Shown here: in pieces, positions 16,573 to 25,710 of the stretch | Layout of the letters: each line of letters opens with the position of its first letter | Position numbering within the stretch: position 1 is the stretch's first letter | Assembly: GCA_003731675.1 (NCBI GenBank) | Contig: RCNQ01000060.1 | Coordinates: forward strand, 1 to 36,435 | DNA from: Bacteroidetes/Chlorobi group bacterium ChocPot_Mid | GTDB lineage: Bacteria > Bacteroidota > Ignavibacteria > Kapaibacteriales > UBA2268 | Direction: 5' to 3' | Length of the DNA: 36,435 bases | Translations under genes and position numbers: made by a program | The notes under the pieces: generated by a model | Database searches by the model: none | Seen by the model: only the letters and a program-made list of their open reading frames with translations | What the model was told of the DNA's origin: nothing

Positions 16573-17069
16573 AAATATTTTTTTATATCTGAAATTCAAT
16601 TCAAAATTAAGTATAATTTTTGATTTTACACATATTCATTTGAGAAAAACATCAAACAATCAATTTTTTTAGTCAGTTTTAAAAAATTTTTTAAATTTTT
16701 TTTATGGAATTTTTTTTGAGTTTGATGGTGTAAAGTGTAAAAATATTTTTTCAGAAGGAGACAAATTAAAAATTATAAGATAAAAACAATTTTTTTTCAA
16801 AAGATGTTAATCCTCCGAGAAGCTGATAAACAGTAGGTTTTCAAAGAATATTTATTATGTGAGATATTATTTAAAAAAAAAAATTAATATAGGAAAGAAA
16901 AAATTTGGAAGTAAATTTTTTAAAAATAATTTTGATGAAAAATTTTGGTAGAAAAGGTGTGGATAAATTTTTGATAAAAAAATAAAAAAAAATATTTTAT
17001 ATCTTAAATCTCTTTCGTAATTTTGAGTTAGGCATAAAGTAAAAATGTTGAAAACTTTAAAGGAATTTT

Positions 17070-18935
17070 ATGAAAGTCGGGCCGTTTGCAAATTTAACGC
17101 CGTTAGATTTTACTAAAAAGAAAAATTTAGAAAGACAAAAAGAAGCATTAAAATTAGTTCGTAAGAAATTAGGAAAAGAGTATCCGAATCTAATTGATGG
17201 TAAACCATCTGTAACCGAAAAGAAGACATATTCAATTAATCCAGCAAATCCAAAAGAAATAATTGGTATTTTTCAAAAGGCAGGTAAACAAGAAGCAGAG
17301 CAAGCAATAGAATCTGCAGCGAAAGCATTTGAAACTTGGAAATATGTACCTGCGGAACGAAGAGCGAAATATCTTCTGGATGCGGCAAAGATTTGTCGCA
17401 AGAGAAGATTTGAGATAAATGCATGGATGATTTCCGAAACAGGAAAGAATTTTGCTGAAGCTGATGCTGATACTTGTGAAGGTATAGACTTTCTCGAGTT
17501 TTACGCACGTGAAGCAATCCGGTATTCACAGGAGCAACCATTGACTCCATATCCGGGTGAAAAGCTTAGCTACTTTTATATTCCCTTAGGTGTTGGTCTT
17601 TGCATACCACCATGGAATTTTCCATGGGCAATTATGCTTGGTATTACAACAGCTGCAATTGTAGCGGGTAATACTGTGGTTATGAAGCCATCATCTGATT
17701 CACCAATGATGGCAAGGTTACTTACTGATATTTTGCATGAAGTTGGTTTGCCAAAGGGAGTTTTGAATTTCTTAGTAGCAAGTGGAGCAGAAGCAGGTGA
17801 TTTTATGGTCGAACATCCAAAGACAAGATTTATTACCTTTACAGGTTCAATGGAAGTTGGACTCAGAATCAACGAACTGGCAGCAAAGAAATCCGAAGGA
17901 CAGATTTGGATTAAAAGAGTAATTGCTGAAATGGGAGGTAAGGATTCTATCATAGTTGATTCGGAAGCAAAGATTGAAGATGCAGTAAAAGGTGTAACCG
18001 TATCTGCATTTGGGTTCCAGGGGCAAAAATGCTCTGCGTGTTCAAGGGCAATTGTTGACAAAAAAGTTTATGACGAATTTGTCGCAAAACTAAAAGTTGC
18101 AGTGGAATCTTTACAATCAGGTGATCCACAAGAAAACTTTTATTCCGGTCCTGTTATTAATGCGGCTTCTGAGCGTTCCATATTGGATTATATCGAAATT
18201 GGGAAAAAGGAAGGTAAGTTATTGACAGGTGGATATAAAATTCAGGAACTACCGGGTTATTATATTAAACCAACAGTGTTTATTGATATTGACCCGATGG
18301 CAAGATTATCTCAGGAAGAAATTTTTGGTCCGGTGTTAGCAGTTATAAAAGCTGAAAATTATGACCATGCTTTGCAAATTGCAAACAACACACAATATGG
18401 ACTGACTGGGGCAGTTTACTCAATGAACAGAGCAAAACTCGACAGAGCAAGAAAAGAATTTCATGTAGGTAATCTTTATTTAAATAGGAAATGCACTGGT
18501 GCCGTCGTAGATGTCCATCCGTTCGGGGGATTCAACATGAGCGGAACGGATTCGAAAGCTGGCAGCCGTGATTATTTATTGCTCTTTTTACAGGGCAAAT
18601 CTGTATCTGAACTAATTACTAATATCACAAAAGGGGTTAATATGCCAACAGCAAAGAAACCAGCAGCTAAAAAAGCTGCTCCAAAGAAACCAGCAGTTAA
18701 AAAAGCTGCTCCAAAGAAACCAGCTGCAAAAAAAGCTGCACCAGCTAAAAAAGCTGCACCAGCAAAAAAAGCCGCTCCTAAAAAAGTAGCTAAGAAAGCA
18801 GTTGCAAAGAAAACTACAGCTAAGAAAACAGTAGCTAAAGCCGCTCCTAAAAAAGCTGCACCAAAAAAAGCCGCTGCTCCTAAAAAAGCTGTAGCAAAAA
18901 AAGCTGCACCAAAAAAACCAGCAGCTAAGAAGTAA
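17070..18935 (+). CDS. pruA: L-glutamate gamma-semialdehyde (1-pyrroline-5-carboxylate) dehydrogenase fused in frame to a Lys/Ala/Pro-rich histone-H1-like tail
   Basis: RocA/PruA-type aldehyde dehydrogenase motifs: ETGKNFAEADADTCEGIDFLEFYAREA, EMGGKDSIIVD, GFQGQKCSACSRAIV, HPFGGFNMSGTDSKAGSRDYLLLFLQGKSVSE. There is no stop codon before the AKKAAPKKP repeat tail. An SD (AAAGGA) precedes the ATG at 17070. Confidence 0.9.
   Translation: MKVGPFANLTPLDFTKKKNLERQKEALKLVRKKLGKEYPNLIDGKPSVTEKKTYSINPANPKEIIGIFQKAGKQEAEQAIESAAKAFETWKYVPAERRAKYLLDAAKICRKRRFEINAWMISETGKNFAEADADTCEGIDFLEFYAREAIRYSQEQPLTPYPGEKLSYFYIPLGVGLCIPPWNFPWAIMLGITTAAIVAGNTVVMKPSSDSPMMARLLTDILHEVGLPKGVLNFLVASGAEAGDFMVEHPKTRFITFTGSMEVGLRINELAAKKSEGQIWIKRVIAEMGGKDSIIVDSEAKIEDAVKGVTVSAFGFQGQKCSACSRAIVDKKVYDEFVAKLKVAVESLQSGDPQENFYSGPVINAASERSILDYIEIGKKEGKLLTGGYKIQELPGYYIKPTVFIDIDPMARLSQEEIFGPVLAVIKAENYDHALQIANNTQYGLTGAVYSMNRAKLDRARKEFHVGNLYLNRKCTGAVVDVHPFGGFNMSGTDSKAGSRDYLLLFLQGKSVSELITNITKGVNMPTAKKPAAKKAAPKKPAVKKAAPKKPAAKKAAPAKKAAPAKKAAPKKVAKKAVAKKTTAKKTVAKAAPKKAAPKKAAAPKKAVAKKAAPKKPAAKK
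18642..18935 (+). other. Histone-H1-like Lys/Ala/Pro repeat domain. It may also be translated on its own from an internal ATG at 18642.
   Basis: MPTAKKPAAKKAAPKKPAVKKAAPKKPAAKKAAPAKKAAPAKK... (97 aa). AAGGGG sits 5 nt upstream of the ATG at 18642. The enzyme domain normally ends 2-3 residues after the VSE motif (from memory). Confidence 0.6.
18654..18743 (+). repeat. Three near-identical 30-bp in-frame tandem units (AAGAAACCAGCAGCTAAAAAAGCTGCTCCA), followed by degenerate 15-18-bp units to about 18932
   Basis: Units at 18654-18683, 18684-18713 and 18714-18743 differ at only a few positions. They encode KKPAAKKAAP. Confidence 0.9.
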
Positions 18936-18950
18936 TTCAATTATTCGATA

Positions 18951-18988
18951 ATTGGGCTGCTCCTGAAATTGGTCAGCCCAATTTTTTT
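18951..18988 (+). terminator. Rho-independent terminator downstream of pruA
   Basis: Stem TTGGGCTG (18952-18959) pairs with CAGCCCAA (18974-18981). The loop is 14 nt, and TTTTTTT follows at 18982-18988. Confidence 0.8.
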
Positions 18989-23452: not shown

Positions 23453-24784
23453 ATGGATGTTGAATTGTTAGCCAGAATACAATTCGGTATAACTGCCGGA
23501 TTTCATTTTTTGTTTCCACCGATGAGTATCGGTTTGGGAGTAATACTTGTAATAATGGAGTGGCGTTTTCTTAGAACAAAAAATATGCTTTACGAGAGAA
23601 TGGCAAAGTTTTGGACAAAAGTTTTTGCTTTGACATTCGGAGTTGGTGTAGCCACAGGTATAGTTATGGAGTTTGAATTCGGAACAAACTGGGCTACATA
23701 TTCAAGGTATGTAGGTGATATTTTTGGTTCACCACTTACCGCAGAAGCAATTTTTGCTTTTTTTCTTGAATCAACATTTTTAGGGATTTTGATTTTTGGT
23801 TGGAATCGGGTCAGTCCAAAAATGCATTTTTTTTCGACATGTATGGTTGCTCTTGGTGCAACTCTAAGTGCTTTTTGGATTATAGTAGCAAACTCATGGA
23901 TGCAAACTCCGGCAGGATTTCATATTGTTAATGAAGGTGGAATAATGCGTGCCGAAATTACTGACTTTTGGGCAATGGTATTCAATCCTTCAACTATTGA
24001 AAGATTTTCTCATGTAATAAGTGCATCATGGTTGACAGGAGCTTTCCTTGTGATGAGCGTTGCTGCTTATTATTTGGTAAAAAGGAGACATATTGATTTT
24101 GCAAAATCTTCGATGAGAATTGCTTTGTTTTTAGCTACTCTTGCGGCATTTTTGCAGCTTGAGACAGGTCACAGAAGTGCTATGGAAGTAGTGAAATATC
24201 AACCTGAGAAGCTTGCAACTTTCGAGGGGCATTTCAACACAGCTGTTTTAGATTTGTACTTTATCGGTTATCTGGATGTTGAAAATGAAAGGATAATTGG
24301 TTTGAAGTGGCCAGGGTTTTTATCTTGGTTGATTTACGGTGATTTTTCTGCTCCTGTCAAAGGTAGAAATGACTTTCCTAAAGATGAATTACCACCTATT
24401 CAACTTCCATTTCAGACTTATCATATTATGGTTGCTATTGGAATGGCATTTATAGGGATTGTCTTATTTAGCATCTTTTTGCTATGGAGAAAAAAACTTT
24501 TTGAAACGAAATGGTATTTGAAACTTTTGATACCTGCATTTGCATTGCCACATATAGCGAATCTTTGCGGATGGATTGCCGCTGAAGTTGGTCGTCAGCC
24601 ATGGGCTGTTTATAAAATATTAAGGACTGATGATGCGATTTCTAAAGTTGTAGCATCTTCAGAAGTTTGGTTTTCATTAATTCTATTTACAACAATTTAT
24701 ATTGTTTTATCAATTTTATTTGTATTCTTATTGTTAAAGAAAATCAAGCATGGACCTGAAGAATTTGAACCGTTAACCATGTAA
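23453..24784 (+). CDS. cydA: Cytochrome bd-type quinol oxidase subunit I (short Q-loop form)
   Basis: LARIQFGITAGFHFLFPPMSIGLG (His18), LTAEAIFAFFLESTFLG, FSHVISASW (His187), KYQPEKLATFEGHF, HIMVAIG and GWIAAEVGRQPW all fit CydA. Confidence 0.9.
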   Translation: MDVELLARIQFGITAGFHFLFPPMSIGLGVILVIMEWRFLRTKNMLYERMAKFWTKVFALTFGVGVATGIVMEFEFGTNWATYSRYVGDIFGSPLTAEAIFAFFLESTFLGILIFGWNRVSPKMHFFSTCMVALGATLSAFWIIVANSWMQTPAGFHIVNEGGIMRAEITDFWAMVFNPSTIERFSHVISASWLTGAFLVMSVAAYYLVKRRHIDFAKSSMRIALFLATLAAFLQLETGHRSAMEVVKYQPEKLATFEGHFNTAVLDLYFIGYLDVENERIIGLKWPGFLSWLIYGDFSAPVKGRNDFPKDELPPIQLPFQTYHIMVAIGMAFIGIVLFSIFLLWRKKLFETKWYLKLLIPAFALPHIANLCGWIAAEVGRQPWAVYKILRTDDAISKVVASSEVWFSLILFTTIYIVLSILFVFLLLKKIKHGPEEFEPLTM

Positions 24785-24864: not shown

Positions 24865-25710
24865 ATGAAAATATATTTTATTATATTCATTTGTGTGATT
24901 TTCTTTAGCTTTAACTCTTGCTATGAGCCGATACAAGGTTCTGGAGTTGTTGTCAGACAAGAGATTACCGGATTGAGTTCATTCAATTCTATTATTTTGA
25001 AAAATATGGCAAAAGTGTATGTCTCATCTGGGTCACCACAAAAAGTTGAAATTGAAGTTGATGATAATTTTCTTGATAATGTACTTGAAAATACTTCGGT
25101 TTCGATAAAGAAATTAACAATTTCCTCAAAAGGAATCATTGCTCCTTCGGTAATGAATGTTTACATCACTATACCTGACATTTCTGAATTGACCAACAAT
25201 GGTAGCGGAAAAATTATTATGCAAAATTCGTTTATTCAGGGGAGTACATTATGGTTAAACTTAACCGGTTCAGGTAATATAGAATTAATGGATTTTGTAA
25301 CAACAGATTGTCAGATAACGAATACTGGTAGTGGTGCAATTCTTATTGATTCACTTGGTGCTTTTAATACTATTAATCTTTCTCTAAGTTCAACCGGTAT
25401 AATAGCAATTAACAAAATATATTCAAAATTTCTTCAAGATACATGTTCTGGTTCAGGAAGAATACTCGGAAAGTCAGGCAGTTCAATGAATGGAAAATAT
25501 TTACTTTCCGGAAGCGGTATTATTGATTTGTCAGGAGTTTCTGCAGTAAATGCGATGGCGTCTAATAGTGGTTCGGGTAGAATTTTACTTAAAGCAACAA
25601 ACAAACTTGATGCTAAAATTTCTGGTAGCGGAAATATTGAATATTGGGGAAATCCACCTGATTTGACACAGAAAATAACCGGGACAGGTAAGCTGATTAA
25701 GAAAAATTGA
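24865..25710 (+). CDS. Secreted DUF2807-like (head GIN domain / putative beta-helix) protein
   Basis: Signal peptide, then periodic motifs: NGSGKIIM, TGSGNIEL, TGSGAILI, SGSGRILG, SGSGIIDL, SGSGRILL, SGSGNIEYWG. This pattern is characteristic of DUF2807. GGAG lies 7 nt upstream of the ATG. Confidence 0.7.
   Translation: MKIYFIIFICVIFFSFNSCYEPIQGSGVVVRQEITGLSSFNSIILKNMAKVYVSSGSPQKVEIEVDDNFLDNVLENTSVSIKKLTISSKGIIAPSVMNVYITIPDISELTNNGSGKIIMQNSFIQGSTLWLNLTGSGNIELMDFVTTDCQITNTGSGAILIDSLGAFNTINLSLSSTGIIAINKIYSKFLQDTCSGSGRILGKSGSSMNGKYLLSGSGIIDLSGVSAVNAMASNSGSGRILLKATNKLDAKISGSGNIEYWGNPPDLTQKITGTGKLIKKN

Follow-up and report, generated by a model that had tools for sequence, protein, structure and literature searches.

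H1-like tails rich in lysine, alanine and proline are known in bacteria mainly from proteins that act in DNA transactions and from organisers of storage granules. The KPAA domain of AlgP binds DNA, and AlgP itself localises to polyphosphate granules and sets the distance between them (PMC9239181). In MLDS, PAKKA motifs link lipid droplets to DNA in a non-specific manner, and a Lys-to-Glu mutation abolishes this binding (PMC5504291). The lysine repeats of TopA, the PAKKA repeats of Ku and the H1-like domain of DdbA also add non-specific affinity for DNA (PMC5714199, PMC3553676, PMC3643593). Here we describe such a tail on a core catabolic enzyme, the L-glutamate gamma-semialdehyde (1-pyrroline-5-carboxylate, P5C) dehydrogenase (P5CDH) encoded by pruA of Bacteroidetes/Chlorobi group bacterium ChocPot_Mid. 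The gene lies on contig RCNQ01000060.1, and the 36,435 nucleotides (nt) of this contig form the window that was analysed. A preliminary description of the locus, made from the sequence alone, had called the combination unusual for a proline-catabolic enzyme. Our analysis supports this. Full-text searches found no literature linking P5CDH to an H1-like or lysine-rich tail. What is new is the type of carrier; polycationic tails of the H1-like kind are themselves known.

Enzyme and tail in one reading frame

The fusion protein is certainly encoded as one polypeptide. A single uninterrupted open reading frame (ORF) at 17070-18935 on the forward strand encodes 621 amino acids (aa), and the same enzyme-tail architecture was found in six other assemblies, whose proteins are 81-92% identical to that of the window. 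The fusion that had been described from the window alone was thereby confirmed.

Residues 1-514 (17070..18611, forward strand) comprise a complete P5CDH domain, as judged by profiles, solved structures and motifs. NF002852 matched aa 4-514 with 769.2 bits (cut-off 648; profile positions 3-512 of 514) and TIGR01237 matched aa 12-515 with 705.1 bits (cut-off 659.65; profile positions 7-510 of 511), while Pfam Aldedh matched the ORF protein with E=3e-138. The closest solved structures are P5CDHs of Bacillus and Thermus (PDB 3QAN, 3RJL and 2BHP; E<=1e-165), which aligned up to residue 514-517; the alignment with 3QAN extends through residue 516 and is free of gaps in the catalytic motifs. EMGGKD with E287 and FQGQKCSACS with C321 form invariant columns in an alignment of 32 sequences, and we take these two residues to be catalytic from what is established for aldehyde dehydrogenases. 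The domain closes with DYLLLFLQGKSVSE, and its last residue, E514, is encoded at 18609-18611. Judged by homology, the enzyme is an ordinary monofunctional member of the PruA/RocA family.

Behind E514, the linker LITNITKGVN (18612..18641, forward strand) leads into a tail of 97 codons and a TAA stop codon (18642..18935, forward strand). The tail reaches from M525 to K621 (18642-18932), with the stop at 18933-18935, and consists of 37 Lys, 36 Ala, 14 Pro, 5 Val and 4 Thr (38% Lys, 37% Ala, 14% Pro). Asp, Glu, Arg and aromatic residues are absent from it, and the net charge of the whole extension beyond E514 is +38. For residues 525-621 AlphaFold2 predicted no secondary structure, and the predicted local distance difference test score (pLDDT) was <50, so the tail is predicted to be disordered. 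Tandem Repeats Finder reported repeats at 18652..18917 (forward strand) with units of 30 nt (3.1 copies, 91% matches), 18 nt (93%) and 15 nt. These units encode KKAAP or KKPAA, and the tandem short Lys-Pro-Ala repeats make up a long C-terminal low-complexity region. Both other forward frames of the tail are interrupted by stop codons.

The H1-like composition stated in the preliminary description was borne out, and the Lys/Ala/Pro-rich, acid-free character is a trait of the C-terminal tails of eukaryotic H1/H5 histones, a likeness of composition only. A resemblance to Hc1, Hc2 and BpH1-like proteins held for composition, but all H1-like profiles remained below their cut-offs. PF07382 (HC2) was the top profile for the tail with 29.6-31.3 bits (cut-off 40), NF038053 for the Burkholderia-type histone H1-like family gave 28.5 bits (cut-off 80) and NF038052 for Hc2 gave 17.6 bits (cut-off 135). 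Four Pfam families matched the whole protein at E<=0.01, namely Aldedh, HC2, LuxC and Ribosomal_60s; HC2 was the only one to match the tail, and a winged-helix or linker-histone domain was absent among these matches. A homology search with the tail only passed none of 8000 scored candidates because HMMER corrects for composition bias, and this result says nothing on free-standing homologues.

Relatives and the origin of the tail

The relatives were found by a search of 5.8 billion proteins, with JGI, NCBI metagenome-assembled genomes (MAGs) and Logan assemblies as sources. The tailed proteins are 608 aa (P0001 and P0002), 622 aa (P0003), 638 aa (P0004), 621 aa (P0005) and 640 aa (P0006) long. 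Their tails comprise 96-128 aa, and all length differences are whole codons that keep the frame. Identical P0001 proteins were encoded on contigs from two different samples, and the same was true for P0006. For five long-tail loci (the window and those of P0001, P0003, P0004 and P0006) DNA was in hand. In their enzyme part the number of synonymous substitutions per synonymous site (dS) ranges from 0.27 to >2 between pairs, with a ratio to the non-synonymous rate (dN/dS) of 0.05-0.10. They are therefore well-separated lineages and not copies of one assembly. The window differs from the other four by a dS of 0.68 to about 2, and the recent stop-codon loss or assembly error that had been considered for this locus is refuted by the six other assemblies. 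Between the VSE that ends the enzyme and the MPTAKK that starts the tail no stop codon was found in any of the long-tail lineages, all of which are fused. These lineages form a small group of uncultured Ignavibacteria/Kapabacteria-like bacteria, and the comparison shows that the architecture is conserved over well-diverged members of it.

Single-nucleotide changes could create a stop codon by 37 routes across the 97 tail codons. According to our arithmetic, about 8 nonsense hits would be expected under neutrality at dS=0.68, which is the value for the window and L083 alone, and none was observed in seven lineages. Moreover, the tails retain 36-43% Lys while their sequence drifts, and six of the seven are acid-free, with one Glu in P0002; even the Thr-rich variant in P0006 has 43% Lys and no acidic residue. 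The missing nonsense hits and the maintained composition show that the tail is translated and under purifying selection against truncation, and on the same grounds assembly error, recent stop loss and neutral drift are excluded.

The origin of the tail was approached by comparison of the C-terminal ends of 120 orthologues. Most of them stop 4-7 residues past GKSV (…SEKI(K)(K)), and many relatives end directly before the stop codon with SEKITKITKRK, AEKITKITKK, SEKITDITK or SEVITDITPIKNKKNKK. In protein and DNA the ELITNITK of the window pairs codon by codon with those coding ends, and the linker is also homologous to EVITDITP… of untailed or short-tail relatives. The linker therefore descends from a coding C-terminal end, and not from an intergenic region as supposed in the preliminary description. 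A neighbour-joining (distance) tree of the enzyme domain groups the long-tail proteins in one clade with P0014 as its sister. P0014 carries a 35-aa Lys-rich tail that ends with …ITRVTPGYKAPAKPKAKKTLKKRTPKKVVKKK before the stop codon; its junction TPGYKAPAK aligns with TKGVNMPTAK (…ITNITKGVNMPTAKKPAAKK) and has Ala in place of Met. The next outgroups have extensions of 11-17 aa, so that the tree contains a graded series of 11, 14-17, 35 and 96-128 aa. A second, unrelated clade with different downstream genes has its own series of 9, 14 and 21-29 aa (EKIVKYNAPAKKVAAKKK…), and its Lys-rich tails lack an ATG. The lengths of the ends span 4 to 128 residues, which makes this locus an unusually clear series in which the birth and lengthening of a polycationic disordered tail can be studied. 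A short basic C-terminal extension (…EKITKITKRK) may have been lengthened stepwise by duplication or slippage of the 15-30-nt units, and these alignments suggest that the tail most likely grew in place and was not captured from an independent H1-like gene.

The opposite view, put forward in the preliminary description, was that an independent small H1-like gene downstream of pruA had been joined to it by stop loss, with the linker as the old intergenic region and its ribosome-binding site (RBS). Free-standing H1-like proteins that start with MATAKKPAAKK… exist in other bacteria, a Shine-Dalgarno (SD)-like motif and an ATG stand exactly at the start of the tail, and the Met is conserved in all long-tail proteins. 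However, seven of the ten linker residues (LITNITK) match coding sequence of relatives that stop after ITK(RK), the junction aligns with the Met-less tail of P0014, and the second clade gained Lys-rich tails without any ATG. The neighbourhood of pruA is conserved, with a divergent alanine racemase gene upstream and a SpoU methylase gene downstream. In the untailed loci L085 and L009 the pruA stop codon and terminator are followed by nothing but the SpoU gene 50-150 bp on. A comparison of orthologous loci, which had been suggested for this purpose, revealed no small H1-like gene between pruA and the SpoU gene in any relative. Besides, in none of the untailed loci of the Ignavibacteria/Kapabacteria type does a Lys-rich ORF lie closer than 4 kb to pruA, and there is no other Lys-rich protein or ORF elsewhere in the window; the only other Lys-rich ORF matches among 80 fetched loci lie in the distant L043 and L065. 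Metagenome contigs were also scanned for exact matches to DNA that encodes KKAAPKKPA(A/V)KKAAPKK in codons ending with A or T; this gave two matches, both in unrelated genes, and neither a free H1-like gene nor a further pruA fusion. The origin by gene fusion is largely refuted, and we regard it as very unlikely. Hardly credible is the idea that the tail is a functionless runaway expansion of low complexity at a permissive C-terminus or an artefact of assembly or sequencing. It would fit the slippage-prone tandem repeats, the length differences between lineages and the lack of a family assignment. Against it stand the occurrence of the fusion in seven independent lineages and many samples, the preserved frame, and the absence of truncation in spite of the 37 one-step routes at dS 0.3 to >2. 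Acidic and aromatic residues are nearly absent amid divergence (one Glu in seven tails), the alternative forward frames are closed by stops, and the terminator past the tail stop is conserved with a compensatory change.

One of the two matches of the pattern scan lies on the metagenome contig Ga0074195_1003288 (L091:7559-9325, reverse strand), where a 588-aa glycoside hydrolase of family GH57 (PF03065, 242 bits) carries a Lys-rich C-terminal tail of about 190 aa that ends with …KKAAPKKPAAKKAAPKKKVVKKAVAKK… and reaches 37 bits with HC2, below the cut-off; its gene adjoins a 425-aa ORF resembling a glycosyltransferase (putative). An H1-like tail thus occurs on a second metabolic enzyme, again from an uncultured bacterium with AT-rich DNA, and this hints that enzyme-tail fusions may be more widespread in such bacteria. 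The other match (L090:1370-1780, reverse strand) is a 136-aa SWIB/MDM2-domain protein with an N-terminal KKPAAKKAAPKKPAAKKAAPKK segment.

Possible function and a possible internal start site

The reading that we favour, with slightly better than even confidence, is a single-polypeptide P5CDH whose tail has grown in place and acts as a polyanion tether. The tail would leave catalysis unchanged and would function as a non-sequence-specific electrostatic tether. P5CDHs assemble as dimers or hexamers (3QAN and 2BHP families), so that 2-6 tails, each with a charge of about +36 to +54, would be displayed per particle and make it a multivalent polyanion binder. The enzyme would then partition onto polyanions, among which nucleoid DNA or RNA is the most probable and polyphosphate a possible target, and by analogy the tether may work as the KPAA/PAKKA tails of AlgP, PhaF, MLDS, TopA and Ku do. 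Lys-rich tails arose twice independently on P5CDH, which suggests an enzyme-specific benefit. Several points speak against this reading. The tail scores above the cut-off for no curated H1-like family, the nature of the ligand (DNA, RNA, polyphosphate or anionic membrane) is guessed from the make-up of the tail, and the stepwise growth draws on one sister (P0014) and a neighbour-joining tree. A proline dehydrogenase (PRODH) gene as partner was not found in the window, and a benefit of tethering P5CDH is not apparent. Finally, a model with the fusion as the only product leaves the invariant SD-ATG, the clade-specific constraint and the rare-codon cluster described below unexplained. The search for partners also covered ribosomal protein S6 in the window, whose C-terminal extension is ordinary and not Lys-rich.

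The internal site (18631..18644, forward strand) consists of the SD-like AAGGGG at 18631-18636, a 5-nt spacer and the in-frame ATG of M525 at 18642-18644, at the positions that the preliminary description had given. The energy of its duplex with the anti-SD sequence is -7.5 kcal/mol compared with -5.7 kcal/mol for the start of pruA itself, and ranks between the 1st and 5th percentile among 241 internal in-frame ATGs. ACA AAA GGG GTN AAN ATG (AAAGGGG-N5-ATG) is unchanged in all five long-tail loci with DNA. Upstream of the ATG, codons 483-523 (18516..18638, forward strand) form a block with suppressed synonymous variation and conserved rare codons that is confined to the long-tail clade. Here 12 of 38 informative codons vary compared with 237 of 338 elsewhere (Fisher p=5.7e-6), which is the minimum of the whole gene. 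The ratio of synonymous differences between the block and the remainder of the gene is 0.50 in long-tail pairs and 1.03 in 426 untailed pairs (5th percentile 0.76). In the second, short-tail clade without the ATG 33 of 38 codons vary and the block effect is absent. An index resembling the codon adaptation index (CAI) is 0.53-0.58 in the block compared with 0.68-0.75 in the gene body, and the GC content at third codon positions (GC3) is 0.43 compared with 0.26, which reflects a conserved cluster of rare G/C-ending codons that was not seen in the short-tail sisters. The constraint peaks 30-80 nt upstream of the ATG and not over the RBS; a rare-codon pause or recombination may also account for it. 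RNA structure was rejected as the cause of the block, with a minimum free energy of z=-0.44 and no compensatory pairs in RNAalifold. An internal promoter was likewise rejected, as there is no sigma-70-like site on the forward strand near 18560-18640 and no TAnnTTTG in the block. Candidate causes are an internal-initiation signal, a pause before the sticky tail leaves the ribosome, gene conversion of the 3' block from one lineage to another and an antisense element.

The first of these candidates leads to the possible though doubtful alternative of a nested gene, in which the internal SD-ATG is also used and yields a free 97-aa H1-like nucleoid protein as the main or an equally selected product, with the fusion as a co-product or by-product. 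The site has remained invariant in five loci despite dS up to saturation, it resembles the conserved RBS of pruA itself (AAAGGA or AAGGGA, N4-5, ATG) and exceeds it in duplex strength, and the 41 codons upstream are the synonymous minimum in this clade only. In-frame internal starts that give C-terminal fragments are known from SpaO-short, the Cas10d small subunit and ribosome profiling with retapamulin. In SpaO-short and the Cas10d small subunit, too, an internal SD and ATG are situated in frame towards the 3' end of a longer ORF and a product of about 100 aa is possible; internal initiation has been shown experimentally there, whereas the pruA tail offers sequence conservation and synonymous constraint. 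On the other hand, the SD is not a general start signal in this DNA: it precedes 5 of 26 starts, the mean anti-SD energy is -1.6 kcal/mol for real starts and no different for the 241 internal in-frame ATGs, and 1%-5% of internal ATGs score equally or better by chance. The promoters are Bacteroidota-type in look (TAnnTTTG), the block is strongest 30-80 nt away from the ATG, and neither a promoter nor a stable or covarying RNA structure was found in it. Besides, the whole linker is conserved as protein, so that the invariant Met, which is kept in all long-tail proteins, is not exceptional alone; the sister lineage P0014 has a Met-less tail, and the pruA stop codon was never regained. We keep the two-product model as a minority view mainly because of the block upstream of the ATG, for which no direct cause was found. 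A more specific version of it appears a little more doubtful still: the 3' end of pruA would be a nested gene whose RBS and ATG evolved inside the enzyme tail, the locus would make a nucleoid-tethered P5CDH together with a free 97-aa H1-like chromatin protein, and the rare-codon block would tune their ratio. If true, a nucleoid-associated protein would have been born from the disordered tail of an enzyme, and proline/glutamate catabolism would be coupled to chromatin or polyphosphate organisation. Use of the internal start would mean that a small chromatin protein arises by internal initiation in a low-complexity tail. Rather improbable is a role in which the tail binds an anionic membrane or an acidic partner such as PRODH and keeps P5CDH near the source of its labile substrate, which would amount to channelling without a PutA fusion. 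PRODH is associated with the membrane, and in Thermus, where PRODH and P5CDH are monofunctional, the two enzymes interact; the twofold gain of Lys-rich tails on this enzyme and the C-terminal additions that the P5CDH module accepts in PutA would also be in line with it. However, the lack of any hydrophobic or amphipathic element in the tail weakens this role. Moreover, every characterised KPAA/PAKKA tail binds DNA or polyphosphate, and a PRODH gene, in which a complementary acidic region might be sought, was found neither in the window nor in the fetched loci.

Surrounding signals and comparison with known systems

A putative Bacteroidota-type promoter -7 element, TAATTTTG, lies upstream of pruA at 17018..17025 (forward strand) and is kept in the five long-tail loci. 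The SD-like AAAGGA at 17059..17064 (forward strand) precedes the pruA start by 5 nt, corresponds to the above-mentioned duplex of -5.7 kcal/mol and reads AAAGGA or AAGGGA in the five loci. Motifs similar to TAnnTTTG (TAAATTTG, TAATTTG and TAATTTTG) are found upstream of many genes in the window: besides 17018-17025, such sites lie upstream of the genes starting at 2788 (reverse strand), 8100, 12956, 19866 and 24865. Downstream of the tail an intrinsic terminator with a GGGCTG…CAGCCC stem and a T-run was seen in the sequence at 18954..18988 (forward strand). It is conserved, and in the most distant relative, L081, the stem reads GGGCTA…TAGCCC, where both sides are changed and the pairing is kept. 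A terminator scan missed this hairpin, presumably because its 14-nt loop exceeds the 3-8-nt limit of the scan. An antisense ORF at 18572-18940 (reverse strand; 122 aa, rich in Ala, Phe and Gly) is open in the five long-tail loci. However, a second antisense frame is open there as well, and the ORF lacks a plausible start or promoter; most likely it mirrors the low-complexity sequence of the tail.

Further genes in the window comprise cytochrome bd oxidase subunit I at 23453-24784 (PF01654, 543 bits), which is followed by a DUF2807 protein at 24865-25710 and not by an obvious subunit II gene. At the window edge, an ORF at 10-771 matches the C-terminal part only of a McrBC restriction-component profile (125-318 of 318). 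Among the fetched records, L001 (CAZEHW010000029.1) and other third party annotation (TPA) MAG records have a pruA and a gene order of the Ignavibacteria type; several are titled 'uncultured Hyphomicrobiales bacterium' and one 'Desulfobulbaceae', and they are probably mislabelled bins.

Among proline-catabolic enzymes the trifunctional PutA of enterobacteria is a known DNA binder, and its P5CDH module is homologous to the enzyme described here (PDB 4NM9). However, PutA binds specific operators by an N-terminal ribbon-helix-helix and includes a PRODH domain. The protein of the window begins directly with the P5CDH module, and the PutA profiles match its P5CDH part only (NF008869 with 382 bits, cut-off 747; NF008772 with 317 bits, cut-off 1750). 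Because the ribbon-helix-helix and the PRODH domain are both absent, it is not PutA-like in a possible binding of DNA. The chlamydial Hc2 (HctB, PF07382) resembles the tail in its Lys/Ala-rich pentamer repeats of variable copy number (PMC2848022). In contrast to the tail, Hc2 is a free-standing developmental nucleoid protein, and the tail scores below the Hc2 cut-offs.

Closer in architecture are AlgP (AlgR3) and PhaF of Pseudomonas, which also have a long C-terminal tandem-repeat tail of Lys, Pro and Ala that is predicted to be disordered, varies in repeat number between strains and is joined to a non-histone N-terminal module. Non-specific DNA binding by the tail is known for these proteins (PMC9239181), whereas the P5CDH tail is likened to them by composition and repeats. 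In AlgP and PhaF this module is a small helical or phasin domain, in contrast to the 57-kDa metabolic enzyme of the window; the sequences are not homologous, and the repeat is KPAA there and KKAAPKKPA(A/V) here. HupB/Hlp, TopA, Ku, MLDS and DdbA similarly bear low-complexity tails of the PAKKA/AKKA type on folded domains, which thereby gain non-specific affinity for DNA, and MLDS and PhaF demonstrate that such tails can tether non-DNA cargo to the nucleoid. Except for the lipid-droplet protein MLDS, these actinobacterial carriers are DNA-transaction or structural proteins, and they come from high-GC Actinobacteria. In contrast, the carrier described here is a proline-catabolic aldehyde dehydrogenase from an AT-rich bacterium of the Bacteroidota/Ignavibacteria group, and it can be used to ask whether cells deliberately anchor metabolic enzymes to the nucleoid, RNA or polyphosphate.

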